The translations under genes were made by a program, and so were the position numbers. The notes beneath the pieces were generated by a model. It did not search any database. It worked only from the letters and a program-made list of their open reading frames with translations, and was not told where the DNA came from. From the IMG/VR virus record IMGVR_UViG_2925908680_000001: a stretch of 64,000 bases of DNA; one strand, given 5' to 3'. This DNA is from a virus (taxonomy: Duplodnaviria > Heunggongvirae > Uroviricota > Caudoviricetes). Below, one piece after another: positions 2,038-43,205 of this stretch. Within the stretch, counting starts at the first letter, position 1. Each line of letters opens with the position of its first letter.

Positions 2038-2613
2038 ATGTTAATGGCGAACGATAACGCATATGCAGAAGAAGATCTCATTTTGAGTGACTTCATAGGG
2101 AAGCGGGAACGCTGGACCAAAAAGCGAGAGGAACTTTACGCCTCATTAGTTCGCAAAGGCGTCAATATCGAAACCGCACAGAGCGGTGATATGACAGTGG
2201 TAAGCGTGGGATTGCACGGTGTAAGCGTGTCAGCAATCAATCATGAGCCATACGTTGCGTTATCCGAGTCAATGGTAAGGTTAGTTAAGTTCCTGAAATA
2301 CACAGAAGCGAATAATGTAATCATTGGCAAAAAGAATATCCCTTTTTCCTCGGCTTTTTACTGGATGATGAAAGGGCTTGATGCCCGGCGGACATCATGG
2401 CCCAAAGGGAGCTATATATCGATGTTCCGTGGCAGTATTGGCAGCAAAGAAAAGCTCTTCGAATTCTTGCCGGAAGAGGCATTCGATATTGTGGAAGGGT
2501 GCGATGTGATGGTGATGCCTCGCCTGGTAATGATGAATGGGGATTTACAGGCGCAGACAGACTGGTTTGCAACTGGTGTGGATATAATCGCGACTGACTG
2601 GGAGGCTTTCTGA
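2038..2613 (+). CDS. Hypothetical protein with DUF2829-like C-terminal domain
   Basis: ORF track; C-terminal pattern FSSAFYWMMKGLDARRTSWPKG ... DLQAQTDWFATGVDIIATDWEAF fits the DUF2829 family signature as recalled; RBS ggagacg before ATG. Confidence 0.55.
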   Translation: MLMANDNAYAEEDLILSDFIGKRERWTKKREELYASLVRKGVNIETAQSGDMTVVSVGLHGVSVSAINHEPYVALSESMVRLVKFLKYTEANNVIIGKKNIPFSSAFYWMMKGLDARRTSWPKGSYISMFRGSIGSKEKLFEFLPEEAFDIVEGCDVMVMPRLVMMNGDLQAQTDWFATGVDIIATDWEAF

Positions 2614-3005
2614 TGTACGGGACTACCAAATTAAGCACTCAACAGGCCACCAATATGGAGTGGTCTATCGCTAACTGTAAGATCGTGTCATGCAATGCCA
2701 CGCGTACTGATGTGGGCCATAAAAGTACTATAACAGGCTATCTAGTAATGACCACCAGGGGGATGAGGGTTAGATTTCGCTGGAAAGCAGAGCAAGTAAC
2801 GCCATTCAGAGAGCCATCAATGCCGCTGCAGGTTGAGCAGGATTATCTATGTTTACCAGAAATAGATGGAGGAATGCTGGTGGAGTCTGATGGTAGTAAG
2901 GCTGATTTTGAAGCCAATTTGAAGCTGGCACAGGCCGTAATCAATAGTTATCGCGGAAAGTGGATCGCAAAAGTGAAACATGTTGTTCGTTTGTCTCGCT
3001 GGTAG
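2613..3005 (+). CDS. Hypothetical protein
   Basis: ORF track; start overlaps upstream stop (ATGA coupling). Confidence 0.5.
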   Translation: MYGTTKLSTQQATNMEWSIANCKIVSCNATRTDVGHKSTITGYLVMTTRGMRVRFRWKAEQVTPFREPSMPLQVEQDYLCLPEIDGGMLVESDGSKADFEANLKLAQAVINSYRGKWIAKVKHVVRLSRW

Positions 3006-3023
3006 CGTTAGGTGTTTAATATT

Positions 3024-3040
3024 AATTTTCTAATATAATC
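3024..3040 (+). promoter_or_regulatory. Operator-like motif aattttctaatataatc (C1-operator-like family)
   Basis: Member of a recurring TTTCTAAYA motif; lies about 75 bp upstream of ORF 3114. Confidence 0.4.
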
Positions 3041-3113
3041 ATCTTTTTACCAGTCTATACAGTTTTAACATTCTCATTATCATCCCCTCGGTCATTTCCT
3101 GCCCGGGGGATTA

Positions 3114-3506
3114 ATGGAACAAATCAGCAGCGCAGAAATTGCGGATATCATGATCAGGGCTGACTGCTATCTGACAGTCACTGAAATTACCACTCTCGCC
3201 AAAGAAAAATACCCTCATCTCCATGTTTCACGAGTAAGTGTAACTAACATCATTCGTCATTTTGTTCGTTCAAGCAGGGCAATCTGTGAGCTGGATGATC
3301 GTGTGTATCCACGAAAATACTGGCTACATGGTCTGAACGGATATCAGTTCAAGGTGCGCGGGCGCACGCCTGAATACGGTAGCTTACTGGTTAAAAACTG
3401 TAGCAGGAAATCAGTCGAACAGGCGCGAAAAGAGCAACGAGAGCTGGTGGACATGGCGAATAAGCTGTGGAATGCCGCCGTTAAAAAGCGTGGTGTTGCT
3501 TTATGA
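3114..3506 (+). CDS. Hypothetical protein; positional analog of P1 late-promoter activator Lpa (unverified)
   Basis: ORF track; immediately upstream of pacA as lpa is in P1; operator-like motif upstream. Confidence 0.5.
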   Translation: MEQISSAEIADIMIRADCYLTVTEITTLAKEKYPHLHVSRVSVTNIIRHFVRSSRAICELDDRVYPRKYWLHGLNGYQFKVRGRTPEYGSLLVKNCSRKSVEQARKEQRELVDMANKLWNAAVKKRGVAL

Positions 3507-4867
3507 GTCTGGTTAATTGGGAGGAGCACCGCGCCCGCTTTATAGCGTTGCGTGAAGAAAAAGGGATCACTGTAAAGGAATACTGTGAGGAGCATGGCCT
3601 TAGCTTCAATACAGCCAGAAAGCATCTCAATATGAAAAAAAATGAGGTGCGGTCGCAGGTAAAGACAACAAAAAAAAGCACCAAATCACCTGAAAAAAAA
3701 CGGGCGGGAAGAGCAACAAAAAAGCTGGAAGAGGGTGCAGAAAAAACAAAATTTACAGAAATTGACAATTCTCAGGGCGCAGGTTCTTTCCGAAGTATGC
3801 CGAGAAAGAAAACTTCGGATCATGAAAATAATGCAAATAATAACAATGAGATAAAAGAATCTGTCAGGAGATCATTGCGCGAAAAAATGGCGAAAATGAT
3901 CCCCGAAGAAGATAAAAGCGCCCCAAAAATTGAGGGATCTTCTGCAATGATCCCTGACGGTGCTGTGCAGCGTGCCACATTGCCCACTACGAATGTGGCT
4001 CGCGATATGATGAAGAACGGCGCAGAAGAACACCTGCGGTTAGCAATTCAAATGGCGCAAGAGCGCGCACTTCAGTATCAAAGCATTGTTGATCAGGAGG
4101 CCGAACGTCTACAGGCGGAAATAGACGCCTTGGGCGATAAAGAGCCAGAAGGAATGCACCCTGGGCAGCGCCTTCTCGGTCTAATCAGTGACGCGGCCTA
4201 CTACATGAATGATTTTATCAGTAGGTTGGCAGCTATATATCAGTCCGAACAAAAGCTGCGACAGGGGGATGAAAAGCTTCGTCAGAGCGCTCGCCAGCAA
4301 GCATTCAAAGAGGCTGAGGCCAGAGAAAAACTCGAATTAGCACGCCTACAGGCCGAACAGCGTGGCAAAGAGATTGAATATCGCATTGGCGCTGACGCAC
4401 GCGCAGCCAGAGTTATCGCCGCCGCTATACGTATGCGTGAGCGCGAGGAACTGGATGATATCGGTGTTGCTGAATACATCGAGCGCCAGGGGGTCAGCGT
4501 CCCGGCTATCCTCGCGGCGCGCGCGGCGAAAGCTATCACTCTTCTCGAACCACCTGTTTCTGACGTCAATGATGTTGATGATGAACAGCTGGACAAAGAG
4601 GCAAGGGAGTTTGCAACGCTTCAGGCTAACCATCCGCAATGGCTGGCAGAGCGCCGGGCGGATGTGGCAACCATTGTTGAAGAATTGGGGTGCGGAGATT
4701 ACGATCGCAATGGCGAGCGTAAAGCTGGAGAATTCGAGGCCAACGACGAAGAGCTGGATATTGACCCTTCGGCAACGGCTGAAATTTACGGTGATTATGA
4801 TGTATCTGATGCAGGGTATGACGCCGGAGATGATGATATCGCGATAGAACCGCCGGAGGATGATTAA
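3503..4867 (+). CDS. pacA: Terminase small subunit, PacA-like
   Basis: ORF track; overlaps start of the large terminase; basic N-terminus and acidic C-terminal tail; synteny with P1 pacA-pacB. Confidence 0.55.
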   Translation: MSLVNWEEHRARFIALREEKGITVKEYCEEHGLSFNTARKHLNMKKNEVRSQVKTTKKSTKSPEKKRAGRATKKLEEGAEKTKFTEIDNSQGAGSFRSMPRKKTSDHENNANNNNEIKESVRRSLREKMAKMIPEEDKSAPKIEGSSAMIPDGAVQRATLPTTNVARDMMKNGAEEHLRLAIQMAQERALQYQSIVDQEAERLQAEIDALGDKEPEGMHPGQRLLGLISDAAYYMNDFISRLAAIYQSEQKLRQGDEKLRQSARQQAFKEAEAREKLELARLQAEQRGKEIEYRIGADARAARVIAAAIRMREREELDDIGVAEYIERQGVSVPAILAARAAKAITLLEPPVSDVNDVDDEQLDKEAREFATLQANHPQWLAERRADVATIVEELGCGDYDRNGERKAGEFEANDEELDIDPSATAEIYGDYDVSDAGYDAGDDDIAIEPPEDD

Positions 4868-36058: not shown

Positions 36059-36964
36059 ATGAGATCAGTCGCTTTCAAAAATATCTTCATCTATCGTCTT
36101 TCACGCGAAGTTAGCTGGGATACTGCAGCGGTAAACGCTGCTCTTGGCAAATTTGTGTTTACCCCATGCGGTTCTCAGGACATGGTTAAAGCTGGTTGGA
36201 CGCCTGTTCTTGGCAACAACCTCACACATGAATACCAGGGTTTTCTTCTGATACAGCATAAACGAGAGGAAAAAATCCTACCTTCTCAAGTGCTCAAAGA
36301 AGAGTTACAGAAAAAAATCCTGACACTTGAAGAAGAGCAAGACAGAAAGCTGAAGAAGACCGAAAAAGATTCGCTGAAGGATGAAGTGCTTCACTCTCTT
36401 CTTCCTCGTGCTTTCACGAGAAAATCACTCGCCAAAATCCTGATCGACCGCAGCAACCATCTGGTATTCGTTGAGGCAAGCAGCGCCAAAAAGGCAGAGG
36501 ACCAGCTGGCTTTATTGCGAAAATCGCTCGGCAGCCTGCCTGTCATTCCATTCACACCACGCGAACCGCTGGAAATTACAATGACCGAGTGGTTTAAAAA
36601 CGGCTTCCCTGCCGGATTTACAGCAGGTGAAGACGCCACATTAAAGGGTCTGCTCGATAATGGTGGTGCCGTTCGCTGCAACAAAGTTGATCTACAGTCC
36701 GACGAGATTATGTCTCACATTGAGGCGGGGAAAGTAGCTACGACCGTTGCAATTAACTGGATGGAACGCGCGTCGTTCAGAGTCAACGATGATATGAGTA
36801 TCAAAGCCCTGACATTCTGTGATGATCTCTATGACCAGAACGACGATATCGACCGGGAGGATGTAGCACAACGATTTGATGCTGATTTCGTGCTCTTTAC
36901 GGGCGAATTATCTGCACTGTTTAACGCGCTGGTGGAGGCCATTGGCGGTGAAGCAGAACGATAA
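36059..36964 (+). CDS. rdgC: Recombination-associated protein RdgC homolog
   Basis: Strong similarity to E. coli RdgC as recalled (FTPCGSQDM, KLKKTEKDSLKDEVLHSLLPRAF, SAKKAEDQLALLRKSLGSLPV). Confidence 0.85.
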   Translation: MRSVAFKNIFIYRLSREVSWDTAAVNAALGKFVFTPCGSQDMVKAGWTPVLGNNLTHEYQGFLLIQHKREEKILPSQVLKEELQKKILTLEEEQDRKLKKTEKDSLKDEVLHSLLPRAFTRKSLAKILIDRSNHLVFVEASSAKKAEDQLALLRKSLGSLPVIPFTPREPLEITMTEWFKNGFPAGFTAGEDATLKGLLDNGGAVRCNKVDLQSDEIMSHIEAGKVATTVAINWMERASFRVNDDMSIKALTFCDDLYDQNDDIDREDVAQRFDADFVLFTGELSALFNALVEAIGGEAER

Positions 36965-36980
36965 TAACCGACAGCTTGTT

Positions 36981-37628
36981 GTGAGTCTTTGTGATTTTAC
37001 GGGGGCAATGGTTGCCCCCTGGCTGGAATACGGTGTCGATGCCGCTATCGTCGATCCACAGCACTTATCGACCAGTGACGAGCGGATGCAATCAGGTGCC
37101 GTTCTGACGCGTATTAGTGCGATCATCGATAGCGATGAAGTATACGCTTTTCTCCGTAAGAATTTGCAGCGCATCGTGTTTCTGGCCGGGTTCCCACCGT
37201 GTACTGACCTGGCTGTTTCCGGCGCGCGCTGGTTTTCGGACAAGGCTAATAAAGATCCGGTTTTCCAGTTCAAAGCAATGCAGGTTGTCTGGCAGTGTTA
37301 TGACATTGCAAAGATGATCGGTTGTCCGTACATGATTGAAAATCCGGTCAGCAAAATATCGACATTCTGGCGTAAGCCAGATCACATCTTTCACCCTTAC
37401 TTCTTCACTGCATATTGTCAGGAAGATAACTACACCAAAAAAACATGCCTCTGGAGCGGCCAGGGCTTTGTCATGCCTGATGCCCTAATGGACGAATCAT
37501 TAGGCAAGCCAGATAACAGAATCCATGCCGCGCCACCAGGGCCTGACAGGGCTAATTTTCGAAGTGCTACTCCACATGGATTCGCAAAGGCAGTTTTCGA
37601 AGCGAATAAGGGGGTGCTCTATGAGTAA
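36981..37628 (+). CDS. Putative DNA (cytosine-5) methyltransferase-like protein, short form
   Basis: Motif I-like SLCDFTGAMV and motif IV-like GFPPCTD; GTG start assumed; stop overlaps dam start (ATGAGTAA). Confidence 0.45.
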   Translation: MSLCDFTGAMVAPWLEYGVDAAIVDPQHLSTSDERMQSGAVLTRISAIIDSDEVYAFLRKNLQRIVFLAGFPPCTDLAVSGARWFSDKANKDPVFQFKAMQVVWQCYDIAKMIGCPYMIENPVSKISTFWRKPDHIFHPYFFTAYCQEDNYTKKTCLWSGQGFVMPDALMDESLGKPDNRIHAAPPGPDRANFRSATPHGFAKAVFEANKGVLYE

Positions 37629-38526
37629 ATCTATAGCAAGCATAGCCATAGAAAAACAGGATACGATGGCTGAAATTAGCTATATGCGCACCATTCGGAC
37701 TCAGGATGAATATGAGCGTCCGATATTCAAATGGGTAGGTGGTAAATTCTCAGAATTGCCTACAGTGCTTGAGCATCTACCACACGGTAAGCGGTTAATA
37801 GAACCATTCGTTGGTGGCGGTTCCGTATTTACGAATGCAGGATTTCGCCACAACCTGCTTAATGATATTAACGGTGACCTGATTAACTTCTATCAGACAT
37901 TGCAGCGAGAAGGACATTCGCTTGTCACGCTGTCATATAGTTTTTTCCAAAATTACAACAACGCTGACGCTTACCTCGAAGTGCGTGAGGCATTTAACAG
38001 AGGAAAGTATGACCAGCTACATCATGCTGCCGCCTTTTTGTACCTTAATCGGCACTGTTTTAATGGCGTAACGCGGTACAACCAAAATGGCGAGTTCAAC
38101 GTGGGGTATGGCAAATACAAAGCGCCCTACTTCCCACATGCAGAGATGGAGGCATTTTTGGCTGATGACGTACTCAAAAACACGTCCTTTGTATCAGGTG
38201 ACTTTGCTGGCGTCATCGAGGCGGCTGGTGAAGGCGATGTGATTTTTTGCGATCCGCCGTATGAACCGCTGCCGGATACAGAAGGGTTTACCAGTTATTC
38301 AGGAAATAGCTTCCGTTTCGACGAACAGAAACGGCTGGTATCTCTATTGGTGGAAGCCCACCAGCGCGGCGCTAAGGTAGTGATAACAAATAGTGGTGCG
38401 CCAAACATCCGTGAACTATATGAAGGAAACGGGTTTAAAGTACATCATATGGCAGCCAGACGGTCGGTGTCCTGCAAGGCGTCAACACGTGTAGTTGCTA
38501 ACGATATAATTGCAATAATGAAGTAA
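37621..38526 (+). CDS. dam: DNA adenine methyltransferase (Dam family)
   Basis: FKWVGGK, EPFVGGGSVF and DPPY motifs. Confidence 0.85.
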   Translation: MSKSIASIAIEKQDTMAEISYMRTIRTQDEYERPIFKWVGGKFSELPTVLEHLPHGKRLIEPFVGGGSVFTNAGFRHNLLNDINGDLINFYQTLQREGHSLVTLSYSFFQNYNNADAYLEVREAFNRGKYDQLHHAAAFLYLNRHCFNGVTRYNQNGEFNVGYGKYKAPYFPHAEMEAFLADDVLKNTSFVSGDFAGVIEAAGEGDVIFCDPPYEPLPDTEGFTSYSGNSFRFDEQKRLVSLLVEAHQRGAKVVITNSGAPNIRELYEGNGFKVHHMAARRSVSCKASTRVVANDIIAIMK

Positions 38527-38529
38527 AAA

Positions 38530-38558
38530 ACGCCGCAGTAGCGGCGTTTACTTTTTTA
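38530..38558. terminator. Bidirectional intrinsic terminator shared by dam and glnS
   Basis: acgccgc-agta-gcggcgt flanked by an A-run and a T-run. Confidence 0.7.
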
Positions 38559-38574
38559 TGTGGCGAAATACCTA

Positions 38575-40236
38575 TTAACCTAACTTCGCCCAGGTATCAC
38601 GCAGCCCAACGGTGCGGTTAAATACCGGTTTTTCCGCCGTAGAATGGCGGCTGTCGAGGCAGAAATAACCTTCACGCTCAAACTGGAATGCTTTACCCGC
38701 TACCGCTTCTTTCAGCGACGGTTCAGCAAAACCCTGTTTGATCACCAGCGATTCCGGGTTAATCACCGACAGGAAATCATCCGCAGCACCTGGGTTCGGC
38801 ACGCTGAACAGACGATCGTACAGGCGGATTTCAACCGGCAGCGCATGTGCCGCGCTCACCCAGTGAATAACGCCTTTCACTTTACGACCATCTGCCGGAT
38901 CTTTGCTTAAGGTGTCGGCGTCATAAGTACAGAAGATGGTGGTGATATTGCCTTCGGCATCTTTCTCCACGCGTTCAGCCTTAATGACGTAAGCATTACG
39001 CAGACGCACTTCTTTACCCAGCACCAGACGTTTGTACTGCTTGTTAGCTTCTTCTCGGAAATCGGCGCGGTCGATCCAAATCTCACCGCTAAACGGCACC
39101 TGACGGTTACCCATTTCCGGTTTGTTTGGATGGTTCGGCATGGTGACCATTTCGCCTTCGCCCTGATAGTTTTCGATGACCAGTTTCACCGGATCGATAA
39201 CCGCCATTGCGCGCGGCGCATTTTCGTTGAGATCTTCACGGATGCAGGATTCCAGCGACGCCATCTCAATGGTGTTGTCCTGCTTGGTCACGCCGATGCG
39301 TTTGCAGAACTCACGAATAGAAGCCGCAGTGTAACCACGACGACGCAGACCGGAAATGGTCGGCATACGCGGGTCATCCCAGCCTTCAACGTGCTTGTCG
39401 GTCACCAGCAGGTTCAGCTTACGCTTGGACATCACAGTGTATTCCAGATTCAGGCGCGAGAATTCGTACTGGCGCGGGTGAACAGGAATGGTGATGTTGT
39501 CCAGCACCCAGTCGTAAAGGCGACGGTTGTCCTGGAACTCAAGCGTACACAGAGAGTGCGTAATACCTTCCAGCGCATCGCTGATGCAGTGGGTGAAGTC
39601 GTACATCGGGTAGATGCACCACTTGTTGCCAGTCTGGTGGTGTTCAGCAAACTTAATGCGATACAGCACCGGATCGCGCATCACGATAAACGGCGAAGCC
39701 ATGTCGATTTTCGCACGCAGGCAGGCTTTACCTTCTTCAAAACCACCGGCACGCATTTTTTCGAACAGCGCCAGGTTCTCTTCAACGCTGCGATCGCGGT
39801 ACGGGCTGTTTTTACCCGGCTGCGTCAGGGTGCCGCGGTATTCGCGGATCTGTTCCGGCGTCAGTTCGTCAACATACGCCAGGCCTTTGTTGATCAGTTC
39901 AACAGCATAGGCGTGGAGCTGATCAAAATAATCGGAGGAGTAACGGATGTTGCCAGACCAGTGAAAACCTAACCATTCAACGTCGTTTTTAATCGACTCG
40001 ACGTACTCGATATCTTCTTTTACCGGGTTAGTGTCGTCGAAACGCAGGTTGCACTGGCCTTTATAGTCCTGGGCGATCCCGAAGTTCAGGCAGATAGATT
40101 TCGCATGACCAATATGCAGATAGCCATTCGGTTCCGGCGGGAAACGGGTATGTACTGTGGTGTGCTTACCACTGGCCAGATCTTCATCGATGATCTGACG
40201 AATAAAGTTAGTCGGGCGGGCTTCTGCCTCACTCAT
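38575..40236 (-). CDS. glnS: Glutaminyl-tRNA synthetase (GlnRS), near-identical to host E. coli protein
   Basis: 553-aa translation matches E. coli GlnRS over essentially the full length from memory ([25 protein letters not shown]..., HIGH and VMSKR class I motifs); only the extreme C-terminus seems to differ. Confidence 0.95.
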
Positions 40237-40504
40237 TGTGGATTCCTCAAAGCGTAAACAACGTATAACAGCGTATGATCTTATAAGCCGAATAGGCTGA
40301 CAACCACTAGTTGATTAGAAATTGCTTTCTATCGTTATTTCAATAATGAGCTTTTTCATTAAGCCCACTTTTGCGCATAAGTAAATTAATGACAAATGGT
40401 ACACAATTGGAACCAAAAAGGATGTAAAGGTGCACCAAATTAGTGGTGTATTGGTGCACCTTTGGTTCAAGACTTTTTAAGTTCTAAAACCAACCTGAAA
40501 GACT

Positions 40505-40792
40505 TTATTTTGCTTCCTCAGACTCCGCTAACATGAGGATAGCATGGCGGATCATATTCAATTTGCTACGATTATGCTTTTTACTTAACGCATCAAGTAC
40601 CTGGTACTCGTATTCATTGAAACCAACACGAATAGATTTAAAATCACGTGGAGCGTCCTTATCGAGCACTTTGTTGTCTTCTGGTTGCTCACCCGGCACC
40701 AAATCAGCCTTACTTGCAAAATCCTCAATTCGGCGTTCAAGATCGGGGTCTTTTACTTCGGGGGCTTTTACCGATTTACGAGGCTTAATCAC
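40505..40792 (-). CDS. Ribbon-helix-helix partition/centromere-binding protein (ParG-like)
   Basis: 95 aa; C-terminal RHH-like FNEYEYQVLDALSKKHNRSKLNMIRHAILMLAE; coupled downstream of parA. Confidence 0.6.
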   Translation of the reverse strand: MIKPRKSVKAPEVKDPDLERRIEDFASKADLVPGEQPEDNKVLDKDAPRDFKSIRVGFNEYEYQVLDALSKKHNRSKLNMIRHAILMLAESEEAK

Positions 40793-41426
40793 TTAATAAC
40801 TCCTTAACCAACATCTGGATTTCACCTTTAGCTTTCCCGTTGTCCATCTCAACAACGCCCTTCCCTTCAGCCATGCAATCGCGGTAAACCTTACGATCAC
40901 GAATGATGGTTTTCAGCAACTTCAGTTGCGGATATTCAGCCAGGTACTCTTTGGCCTCATTGGTTTCATTCACAACCGGATTGGATGGGGCCATTGTTAA
41001 GACTGCGAACGCCTTAATGCTAGGATTAGGCATCAGGTCCAAAGCCTCTTCAAACACTTCAACAAAGTGTGCCAGCGTGTCTAAATCTGGTTGAGATGGT
41101 CTGAATGGGACCAACACAATATCTGCAGCGGTTATGCCTGTACGCATCTCTTTGCTATCGCGCCCGGCTGTATCAACAACTACAAATTCATAACGCTTAT
41201 CCAGATCGAGAAGTGTTTCTCGAATATTACCAAACTTCTGGACACAATGAATTACAGGAGAAACCTCTGCCGTGTTACGGTCAGCGGCCCAGCGGGCAGC
41301 TGTTCCTTGCTTGTCTGCATCTAGTAACACTACATCCTTATTTTCGCGGGCAAGCTCCGCACAGATGTTTACGCTTGTGGTTGATTTTCCACAGCCACCT
41401 TTTTGGCTGACTACCAATATAATCAT
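40785..41426 (-). CDS. parA: ParA-family partition ATPase (small type Ib)
   Basis: Deviant Walker A VVSQKGGCGKSTT; 213 aa. Confidence 0.8.
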   Translation of the reverse strand: MIILVVSQKGGCGKSTTSVNICAELARENKDVVLLDADKQGTAARWAADRNTAEVSPVIHCVQKFGNIRETLLDLDKRYEFVVVDTAGRDSKEMRTGITAADIVLVPFRPSQPDLDTLAHFVEVFEEALDLMPNPSIKAFAVLTMAPSNPVVNETNEAKEYLAEYPQLKLLKTIIRDRKVYRDCMAEGKGVVEMDNGKAKGEIQMLVKELLSD

Positions 41427-41711
41427 ATCCGTTCCTCGGTGTTATTTTGGTATCAAACTGGTTCCAAACAGAAGCCTTATTGATGCGGTTTTGGCTCTAT
41501 AGTGGAGTCATTATGCTTTGCAAAAGTATAACACTAATCATTCTAAATTTGCCCTCTGTTGCATCCTGTTTAACACGAAATCAGCACTAAATTGGAACCA
41601 GATACAAAGCAGCACCATAACAACACCGTTTTGGTACTAAAAGAGCACCAAACTAGAATCATAACGGTATAAAAAAGGCTGCAAATTGCAGCCTTTGAAG
41701 ATGTAGATTGG

Positions 41712-42083
41712 TTAATCAGGGAGTGAGTTTGCCAAATTCTGAGCAGAGCGGCTTTTCGGAACGCCTGGTTTTTTTACATCCTCTGAGACAGAGGTTTTTC
41801 CTTCAGTAGGTTCCCGAACTTCATGCGAAATTTCAAGAAACGAAACCAGCATTTTTCTGATCACTTCAGAGCTATTATCACCGGATAAAAGCGATGCCAA
41901 CATGGGAGGTAATCTGCTATCAACCTCGCCAAGAGCGATACCTGCAAGCATCGCAGTGCGCACCATATCATTGCGATCACTTAATGGATGGGCCTCAATT
42001 TTTGCCACAGCATATTGCTCACTGGCGTAAGCGTTAAGATCTGAACGAAGATAAAACATTATTTTTCGACGTTCTTTAGACAT
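41712..42083 (-). CDS. parR: ParR/StbB-like centromere-binding protein
   Basis: 123 aa directly downstream of parM; ParR-like N-terminal segment. Confidence 0.65.
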   Translation of the reverse strand: MSKERRKIMFYLRSDLNAYASEQYAVAKIEAHPLSDRNDMVRTAMLAGIALGEVDSRLPPMLASLLSGDNSSEVIRKMLVSFLEISHEVREPTEGKTSVSEDVKKPGVPKSRSAQNLANSLPD

Positions 42084-42093
42084 GGCAACCTCA

Positions 42094-43053
42094 TCAACCG
42101 ATAGATTTTAGACCATATACAAGAGCAAGTTGTGGATCATCAGCAACGAAAAACCTATCGTCACGAATGTTTACCTGCTCACGGATAGCATCAGCAACAA
42201 GCGGCGCGCCGCCACCAATTACCATAACATGTGTGTATCCTTTGAAATCACTGATCACATCCAGTACGCGTGTACGGAGTCGCTCTATGCTTGACGAAAT
42301 GGCTTTCTTAACATCATCAATAGCAGACGGATCGTTAATATTGTCGGTCAGATAATCCTCATCATCTCGATTAATGATTAATTGATCGACGTTATAATTA
42401 GAGGTTTCGGTATTAGCTTTTGCAAGTGCCTGTCTGACCTCTTTAGTTACCAGCGAAACGCCGAGATTAGAATCGCCAAATACGCGAGAAACGGCGGTCA
42501 TTTGCCCGGCAACCATCGACACATCCAGAGTAGTCCCGCCAAGATCAACAATAAGCACAGAATGCGCTGGCACAAGGCTGTCGCACAGACCGATCCCTGC
42601 GGGTATTGACTCCGGGCGCACAGTCACTTTTTTGATAGTAAAAACCTGACCTTTGTTAAGGGTGACTGGTCGCATCAGGCTGGCCTTTTTCCGCTCAATA
42701 TTTTTCATGTTGTATTGTGCGTCGTCGTCATAAAACTCTGCCAGTGGCAACGTGACTACTATTTCCACTTCTTGAGGCTCAATGCCACTTGTAAGCAGGG
42801 CATGATGAACAGCAAGCACATTAAGCGGGCTGTATTGCCATTCAACGTTATTCGTTGGCAGAACATCCGGCGAGATCAAGTCATATGAATATTTTTCGTC
42901 ATCAATGATGTAGTTAAACGTTTTTCCTGCGCCAAATGTGGCGGACCATCCACGTTTAAAACTGTTCGGGCAGATATGGGTTCGAGTTTCCCCGTCTTGT
43001 TCCCACAGCATTTTGATATTGGTAGAACCATCGTCGATAAAAATGCGCATCAT
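42094..43053 (-). CDS. parM: ParM/StbA actin-like segregation ATPase
   Basis: Start at MMRIFIDDGSTNIK; strong similarity to R1 ParM as recalled (SPNSFKR, NVLAVHHALLTSG, DLGGTTLD, THVMVIGGGA); 320 aa. Confidence 0.85.
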   Translation of the reverse strand: MMRIFIDDGSTNIKMLWEQDGETRTHICPNSFKRGWSATFGAGKTFNYIIDDEKYSYDLISPDVLPTNNVEWQYSPLNVLAVHHALLTSGIEPQEVEIVVTLPLAEFYDDDAQYNMKNIERKKASLMRPVTLNKGQVFTIKKVTVRPESIPAGIGLCDSLVPAHSVLIVDLGGTTLDVSMVAGQMTAVSRVFGDSNLGVSLVTKEVRQALAKANTETSNYNVDQLIINRDDEDYLTDNINDPSAIDDVKKAISSSIERLRTRVLDVISDFKGYTHVMVIGGGAPLVADAIREQVNIRDDRFFVADDPQLALVYGLKSIG

Positions 43054-43071
43054 ATTGCTCCACTTCTGAGA

Positions 43072-43205
43072 CACATTTGAGAAAGAATTGAATCTTATAT
43101 GAGAAAACAAAATAAAACCAGAAGTTGAGAGAGCAAAAAGCACCAGATTTGAGACAAACCAGAGACAAACTAGAGACACACTAGAGACAAGTATGAGAAA
43201 CAAGA
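43072..43205. repeat. parC-like centromere: about 8-10 direct repeats with 10-11 bp period
   Basis: tttgagaaag, tatgagaaaac, gttgagagagc, tttgagacaaa, ccagagacaaa, ctagagacaca, ctagagacaag, tatgagaaaca immediately upstream of parM. Confidence 0.6.

Follow-up and report, generated by a model that had tools for sequence, protein, structure and literature searches.

A host-type glutaminyl-tRNA synthetase gene carried as cargo by a D6-like phage-plasmid

Introduction

Why would a phage-plasmid carry a complete gene for an essential housekeeping aminoacyl-tRNA synthetase (aaRS)? This question is raised by the 64,000-nucleotide (nt) stretch of viral DNA in IMG/VR record IMGVR_UViG_2925908680_000001 (Caudoviricetes), hereafter called the window, which encodes a host-type glutaminyl-tRNA synthetase (GlnRS) on its reverse strand. 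Such an enzyme is uncommon on a transmissible phage-plasmid. An earlier reading of the letters of the window (the original prediction) described this glnS gene as cargo between dam and the partition genes, a placement with which the open reading frame (ORF), its Pfam domains and the gene order of phage D6 all agree, and proposed that the gene was a recent host capture.

Our analysis favors a different history, to which we assign a probability of roughly three in four. The glnS gene appears to be family-typical cargo (a 'moron') of D6-like phage-plasmids that was acquired in a single old capture, has since been exchanged, and is kept by selection. The occurrence of glnS in the D6 family is already published and is an old hallmark of the group, not a new finding. 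In Escherichia phage D6 (NC_050154 / MF356679), the gene is annotated as orf62 (H7U15_gp065), 'glutaminyl-tRNA synthetase, similar to E. coli GlnS', and has a ParA-like gene plus orf61 on one side and a dmt-like methylase gene on the other. PMC6799933, citing Gilcrease & Casjens 2018, describes glnS as cargo ('moron') in all D6-like genomes then known. The view that a complete synthetase gene is unusual on a phage-plasmid therefore holds for phages in general, but not for this family, where the gene is annotated in D6 and discussed in that paper. Four details appear to be absent from the searchable literature: the retention of a Dam-sensitive host promoter together with trimming at the stop codon, the lack of glnS in about one-fifth of D6-type plasmids, the probable age of the cassette relative to the diversity of the plasmid copies, and the exchange of sequence tracts with the chromosome. 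These refine a known feature and do not define a new kind of system.

An intact GlnRS gene of the host type

The glnS coding sequence (CDS; 38575..40236, reverse strand) begins with ATG and encodes a GlnRS of 553 amino acids (aa). The Pfam domain tRNA-synt_1c is recognized at residues 28-337 (E = 4.7e-130) and is followed by the two C-terminal beta-barrel anticodon-binding domains, tRNA-synt_1c_C (residues 340-439) and tRNA-synt_1c_C2 (residues 456-528), such that the three domains together span residues 28-528. The class signatures are present as HIGH at residue 41 and MSK at residue 269 (VMSKR, 267-271). Over its full length, the protein aligns with the solved structures 1o0b and 1gts of E. 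coli GlnRS at 1293 bits, whereas its best match to a glutamyl-tRNA synthetase (GluRS) reaches only 281 bits, which argues for orthology with GlnRS and not with GluRS. Domains, motifs, and orthology assign the product to bacterial GlnRS, a class I aaRS, and the gene looks real, intact, and functional.

The proposal that the product is essentially identical to E. coli GlnRS is borne out for the protein, which carries four substitutions relative to the K-12 enzyme (V97I, I112V, S377N, and D510E; ~99% aa identity). It is not borne out for the DNA, since the CDS is only 96.4% identical to that of K-12, with 58 of the first 1650 nt differing, mostly (53) at third codon positions. With a protein this close to the host enzyme, the gene is not the diverged, phage-specific homolog that the original prediction had contrasted with a recent host capture. 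The C-terminus reads ..TWAKLG* in the window and ..TWAKVGE* in K-12, which confirms the difference that had been noted originally.

The captured segment and its junctions

Comparison by blastn with K-12 and an alignment of junctions from multiple species delimit the block that is homologous to the Escherichia chromosomal glnS locus to 38579..40324 (reverse strand). In the blastn comparison, window positions 40324..38579 match positions 2507..4251 of the K-12 locus (L001) at 95.9% identity. The block opens at about -88 from the ATG, with an uncertainty of ~15 nt at this 5' edge, and closes 4 nt short of the stop codon. The altered C-terminus marks the 3' junction, as had been suspected of a recombination junction, since the stop codon is where the similarity to chromosomal glnS is lost. 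The junctions of this block are the same in D6.

The captured block includes the predicted sigma-70 promoter of host glnS (TTGTCA-17 nt-GATCAT; 40275..40303, reverse strand), which was recognized by a promoter scan and by homology. Its -10 hexamer holds a Dam methylation site (GATC, 40277..40280). Both hexamers and the GATC are identical in K-12 (where glnS is b0680), E. albertii, E. whittamii, D6, and a D6-like plasmid of E. fergusonii, while the 17-nt spacer varies at a few positions among these loci. Most of the leader is likewise unchanged in K-12, E. albertii, and E. whittamii. The leader also contributes a Shine-Dalgarno sequence (GAGGA; 40244..40248, reverse strand) located 7 nt 5' of the ATG, read directly from the sequence and part of a stretch identical to the chromosomal leader. 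The chromosomal glnS promoter is reported to be repressed by Dam, with derepression in dam mutants and upon mutation of its Dam sites (Plumbridge & Soll 1987, as cited in PMC11741368), and RNA-seq data in the latter paper, with a change of +1.08 log2 for chromosomal glnS, support this repression.

The terminator that follows the CDS does not stem from chromosomal glnS. This predicted bidirectional intrinsic hairpin, AAACGCCGC-loop-GCGGCGTTT (38528..38549), was detected by terminator scans of both strands, folding (-19.5 kcal/mol, z = -3.8), and alignment. It is flanked by an A-run and, on the opposite side, by a T-run, and it is common to the convergent genes glnS and dam. The chromosome instead carries a REP-like (repetitive extragenic palindromic) sequence downstream of glnS, which is absent from the plasmid cassette. 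The window likewise lacks the nagE and chiP neighborhood of chromosomal glnS, its GlnRS is one residue shorter at the C-terminus, its sequence 5' of the -35 hexamer is diverged, and its nucleotides differ by 3-4% from every E. coli allele. Just 5' of the -35 hexamer (40304-40324), the plasmid sequence GAAAGCAATTTCTAATCAACTAGTGG matches about two-thirds of the chromosomal sequence GATTATCAATTTTAAAAAACTAACAG, and the remaining leader is nearly identical. Either the junction lies slightly further upstream and the region has diverged locally, or an A-rich stretch was altered after capture.

Elements with and without glnS

Identity and gene order identify the window as part of a phage D6-like (P1-related) phage-plasmid. 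Window positions 38200-40800 are 98.3% identical to D6 with both flanks included, and the two share the order tail/baseplate genes, rdgC-like gene, two methylase genes, glnS, orf61, parA-like gene, and parM. Over 2.6-3.0 kb around the locus the identity is 98.3-98.6%, and the best-matching non-mobilizable plasmids of ~90 kb share the same 2.6 kb at 98-99.6% identity. The relatives that were retrieved are typed by MOB-suite as rep_cluster_1704, the D6-type replicon.

The arrangement is widespread. Coverage of at least 80% of glnS plus its flanks (2.6 kb) is reached by 98 PLSDB records (E. coli, Salmonella, and Shigella) and by 70 records among complete E. coli genomes. The complete gene is also present in nine viral contigs of IMG/VR. 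In all, about 100 plasmids of ~90 kb from E. coli, Salmonella, Shigella, and E. fergusonii have the common glnS junctions. Because the junctions recur in D6, in these plasmids, and in IMG/VR contigs, assembly chimerism is excluded, and the locus is not a peculiarity of one assembly. More distant IMG/VR matches (L012 and L016-L019) show 48-85% aa identity; one of these, L012 (74.5% nt identity), whose gene is terminal on a 26-kb contig, probably represents host flank.

The D6 gene shares with the window its position, junctions, promoter, terminator, and LG* C-terminus. The two CDSs are 97.7% identical, and the D6 protein differs at four residues (K106Q, S377N, Q466L, and D510E). Plasmid pYU39_89 of Salmonella Typhimurium ST213 is described in PMC6799933 as a D6-like plasmid prophage with glnS as cargo, and the window belongs to the same group.

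Not all members of the group carry the gene. An empty-site query, composed of the two flanks joined with glnS removed, matched 19 PLSDB plasmids as a single contiguous place. In pPSS-08-1_2 from E. coli and in a Shigella dysenteriae plasmid, both of the same replicon type as the glnS carriers, orf61 is followed by an unrelated intergenic region of ~137 bp and then by dam. The former aligns with 53.7 kb of the window at 92.5% identity, in blocks that break at 38534 and resume at 40507, and a scan of its whole length (88 kb) found no glnS. The segment absent from glnS-less relatives is therefore 38535..40506, with which the original bounds of 38527-40504 nearly coincide. Relatives of this kind are not reported in PMC6799933.

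Among complete E. coli genomes, 101 of 5,426 (~2%) contain the D6-type dam flank, and glnS occurs at 81 plasmid places, which suggests that roughly four in five D6-type elements carry the gene. D6-type elements also circulate in Salmonella. With a promoter and terminator of its own, both predicted, and with presence/absence polymorphism among close relatives, glnS shows the hallmarks of a 'moron'.

Origin and age of the capture

A recent capture of glnS from the current host, or a chimeric assembly of chromosomal glnS with a plasmid contig, would account for the high protein identity to E. coli GlnRS and for the abrupt loss of homology at both ends. However, chromosomal glnS in 5,425 E. coli genomes is only 95.8-97.2% identical to the homologous block of the window, and no closer donor, above ~97.2%, was found among them. 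The same junctions are shared by D6, by ~100 independent complete plasmids from four host taxa, and by IMG/VR contigs. In the two strains for which plasmid and chromosome represent a true carrier pair, KOr024 and 702/18, the two glnS copies are intact, with 51 and 55 differences, respectively, over 1650 sites between the plasmid allele and that of its own host. A third pair, labeled 'strain 405', was dropped upon recognition that it combined two different assemblies. Taken together, these observations make a recent capture or a chimera extremely improbable, and the recent capture of the original prediction is not supported by the sequences compared.

The age of the cassette is better judged from synonymous divergence (dS). 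The window differs from E. coli chromosomal alleles at dS 0.11-0.16, compared with 0.09-0.10 between E. coli phylogroups and 0.27 between E. coli and E. albertii. Nucleotide identity of the window CDS is lower to these other taxa than to K-12, at 94.9% for E. albertii, 94.8% for E. whittamii, and ~88% for Citrobacter and Salmonella; the chromosomal alleles compared were from species other than E. fergusonii, E. marmotae, and E. ruysiae. On these dS and identity values, the donor would have belonged to the E. coli clade or a close sister.

A D6-like plasmid of E. fergusonii provides a more distant point of comparison. Its backbone is only 65-90% identical to the window, and yet it has the identical 5' junction and a 3' junction at the stop codon. 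Its glnS matches the window at 92-100% in windows of 100 nt, and its GlnRS ends in ..VEG*, whereas the proteins of the window and D6 end in LG*. Junctions common to the window, D6, and this divergent plasmid favor the reading that a single capture took place, and they indicate that the cassette predates the diversity among present plasmid copies.

Mosaic alleles and selection on the protein

Comparisons among the alleles point clearly to mosaicism, with tracts in the plasmid copies derived from chromosomal alleles of E. coli and E. albertii. The D6 allele is K-12-like at 21 of 22 informative sites in nt 1110-1572, where the window is not. Likewise, the allele of L007 resembles that of strain CT282 in nt 234-1182 (26 of 31 informative sites), and that of L006 is E. 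albertii-like in nt 1311-1437 (11 of 12). Permutation of the maximum chi-square statistic gave p <= 0.002 for each of these three tracts. In a neighbor-joining (NJ) tree, the plasmid and E. coli alleles form a clade in 187 of 200 bootstraps, and the plasmid alleles alone do so in 38 of 200; as the site matrix reveals, it is because of the mosaic tracts that they are not monophyletic.

Recent conversion by the resident host allele was considered and rejected for the two true carrier pairs. The plasmid alleles in KOr024 and 702/18 are no closer to that of their own host than to those of unrelated strains (maximum chi-square p = 0.30 and 0.12).

Purifying selection on the protein, probably strong, is indicated by the ratio of nonsynonymous to synonymous substitution rates (dN/dS), which is 0.019 for the window against K-12, 0.03-0.04 among plasmid alleles, and 0.012-0.018 among chromosomal alleles. 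No stop codon interrupts the first 550 codons in any of the 15 complete plasmid or viral copies translated. All substitutions in the plasmid copies are conservative, and I112V and T163A are also seen in chromosomal alleles. D510E is the sole difference between the L007 protein and the E. coli consensus, and L015 lacks this change.

Two apparent examples of decay were rejected. Plasmid pSa1423-160k (NZ_MK356558.1) matches at 90.5% identity with 164 gap openings relative to the window, which marks it as an error-rich assembly. In NZ_CP031917.1, the genes neighboring the 'frameshifted' glnS are frameshifted as well, pointing to assembly error. Most simply, both are indel-rich assemblies and should not be counted as pseudogenes.

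The mosaic structure and the lack of monophyly could also be explained if glnS were a neutral passenger, or a patch of homology that serves mainly to recombine with the chromosome through allele shuttling or co-integration and is kept intact by gene conversion. Several findings run counter to this idea. The 101 matches to the D6-type dam flank in complete E. coli genomes are all on plasmids and none is chromosomal, which leads us to reject integration via glnS homology and gives no sign of stable co-integrates. The copies stay E. coli-like (97.8-99.3% identity to the window) and are annotated as a glnS CDS in the Salmonella plasmids listed, even though the Salmonella chromosomal allele that was retrieved is only ~88% identical. 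Moreover, the sole 'frameshifted' copy examined is the probable assembly error described above, and no recent conversion is detectable in the two true pairs. We regard a neutral or purely recombinational role as quite unlikely.

Proposed history and function

In the history that we favor, a chromosomal segment of ~1.75 kb would have been copied from an Escherichia of the E. coli clade in one illegitimate recombination event. This segment would have comprised the glnS promoter, leader, ribosome-binding site, and complete CDS, cut at the stop codon. It would have entered the intergenic gap that separates the parA-like/orf61 partition operon from the convergent dam gene; there, a bidirectional terminator supplied by the phage would end the glnS transcript. 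Since then, the cassette would have been inherited and exchanged among diverged D6-like backbones, with occasional swaps of tracts with the chromosomal glnS of the hosts.

In the plasmid-prophage state, the gene would probably be transcribed from its own Dam-sensitive sigma-70 promoter to give an active GlnRS. The five tRNA genes of the window form a cluster (97-1583) with the specificities Arg(tct), Tyr(gta), Thr(tgt), Ser(tga), and Met(cat), and none of them is a tRNA-Gln, as had been stated originally. Because the element lacks a tRNA-Gln of its own, its GlnRS would charge the tRNA-Gln of the host. The tRNA set varies within the D6 family: plasmid pYU39_89 is reported in PMC6799933 with Asn, Thr, Ser, and Met tRNAs, in contrast to the five found in the window. 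The element might thereby provide a second source of GlnRS for the cell, amplified further as it replicates. Candidate benefits include extra or backup charging capacity, lysogen fitness, and plasmid retention.

Several considerations weigh against this account of an old cargo gene kept by selection. Part of the low dN/dS may have been brought in from chromosomal alleles through gene conversion. No substitution within the first 550 residues has become fixed throughout the plasmid copies. Promoter and terminator were predicted by consensus, joined in the case of the promoter by homology to its chromosomal counterpart, and expression and enzyme activity are likewise deduced from sequence. An unusual demand of the phage for glutamine was not seen in the long ORFs of the window, in which Gln makes up an ordinary 4.0% of residues. 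Finally, about one-fifth of D6-type plasmids lack glnS, and therefore the gene is dispensable for the life cycle of the element.

The absence of fixed substitutions bears equally on whether the plasmid encodes a variant synthetase with altered properties, such as resistance to an inhibitor or toxin or a changed tRNA specificity. Plasmid-borne synthetases that confer resistance are known, for example mupirocin-resistant isoleucyl-tRNA synthetase (IleRS). In every plasmid copy whose 3' end was read, the C-terminus differs from that of the chromosomal enzyme (LG* in the window and D6, VEG* in the E. fergusonii plasmid). However, the two C-terminal variants differ from each other, and the changes elsewhere are conservative, with none fixed. 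We therefore consider a specialized enzyme highly improbable.

Another possibility is that glnS acts as a retention device, where the plasmid synthetase replaces a silenced or down-regulated chromosomal copy such that cells losing the phage-plasmid are penalized. A precedent exists in the cysS gene of pBT1 in S. Typhimurium D23580 (PMC6785131, PMC6333337), a complete aaRS gene that is likewise carried on a large plasmid beside a chromosomal paralogue. In D23580, the plasmid cysS is required, whereas the chromosomal cysS is dispensable and poorly expressed (PMC6785131). The same idea has been put forward for D6-like glnS in PMC6799933, and glnS adjoins partition modules. The two systems also differ. 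The pBT1 cysteinyl-tRNA synthetase (CysRS) is a distinct enzyme whose catalytic efficiency is 3-fold lower, and experiments show that it is required (PMC6785131, PMC6333337), whereas the D6-type GlnRS hardly differs from that of the host, is carried on a phage-plasmid, and is known from sequence alone. Furthermore, 5,425 of the 5,426 complete genomes retain a chromosomal glnS that spans at least 80% of the query, and the gene is annotated as intact in both carriers checked, KOr024 and 702/18. D6-like elements already have two toxin-antitoxin systems according to PMC6799933, and ~20% of D6-type plasmids do without glnS. These facts dampen our enthusiasm for a retention device of the pBT1 type, which we view as doubtful. 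If glnS does matter for lysogen fitness or plasmid retention, it would join the few plasmid-borne synthetases, such as pBT1 cysS, that influence host physiology.

The Dam site in the promoter, located next to the dam gene of the element itself, raises one further and rather unlikely scenario. GlnRS might be produced in a burst from un- or hemimethylated DNA right after infection or during runaway lytic replication, and be throttled in the methylated resident plasmid, such that the promoter would serve as a timer. The cassette might in addition act as a mobile reservoir that moves glnS tracts between Escherichia species. If true, a timer or reservoir role would make the cassette more than a passive dosage gene.

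Host-type glnS on other plasmids

Plasmids of Enterobacter ludwigii (NZ_CP116349.1) and Klebsiella pneumoniae (NZ_OP378648.1) also carry host-type glnS genes, with ~86-87% nt identity to the window. They are not D6-like, and each seems to have been acquired independently from the genus of its own host; therefore, plasmid-borne glnS arose more than once. In the E. ludwigii plasmid (134 kb; locus L074, 4001-5668), glnS is 86.8% identical to that of the window and adjoins two site-specific integrase genes, dinQ, and a large SNF2 gene. The K. pneumoniae plasmid that bears glnS is 316 kb in length.

Flanking genes and other features of the locus

The flanks named in the original prediction (rdgC, methyltransferases, and par) were all recovered as an rdgC/hrdC-like gene, two DNA methyltransferase genes, and ParA-like and ParM partition genes. 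Convergent with glnS is the backbone gene for a Dam DNA adenine methyltransferase of the D12 class (37621..38526, forward strand; Pfam MethyltransfD12), which corresponds to D6 gp064 (906 bp). Upstream of glnS and in the same orientation (reverse strand) are two further backbone genes that correspond to D6 gp067/gp066: the small orf61 (40505..40792), supported by its ORF and the D6 annotation, and a gene for a parA-like ATPase (40785..41426), supported by its ORF and a ParA/MinD-type Pfam match.

Between the stop codon of orf61 and the captured promoter lies a 182-bp spacer (40325..40506, reverse strand), defined by blastn and the empty-site comparison. Among the loci compared, it is confined to D6-like elements that carry glnS. 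A blastn search for its origin gave no match in 44 enterobacterial chromosomal glnS loci, elsewhere in the window, or in the glnS-less relatives. The spacer includes a perfect 13-bp inverted repeat, AAAGGTGCACCAA / TTGGTGCACCTTT, with a 12-nt loop followed by a T-run (40426..40463, reverse strand), which was located by a repeat finder and by folding (-24.8 kcal/mol, z = -4.1). This structure could be a candidate terminator for the parA-like/orf61 operon, in which case it would insulate the glnS promoter, or a binding site for a partition protein. It carries two GGTGCACC palindromes, the sole two in the window, and the glnS-less relatives have repeats of the TGGTACC/TGGCATC type at this position instead.

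The double partition region (40507-43105), which comprises both parA-like/orf61 and parM with its partner, shares only 80.8% identity with that of pPSS-08-1_2, whereas the neighboring blocks are 95-98% identical. This pattern suggests that partition modules, perhaps representing incompatibility alleles, may be exchanged whole, glnS being tied to one type of module.

The methylase genes are variable as well. The window and D6 have two separate methylase ORFs (about 36876-37628 and 37621-38526 in the window). In the E. coli 702/18 plasmid p702_18_3 (locus L085, 2649-4937), the methylase gene beside glnS is a single fused gene of the Dam family (2,289 bp), as in some other D6-like plasmids, and dam is flagged as partial in several RefSeq records. 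Lastly, pPSS-08-1_2 (NZ_AP027678.1; locus L081, 9889-11058) carries a gene for a TnpB-family RNA-guided endonuclease beside a lytic replication gene.

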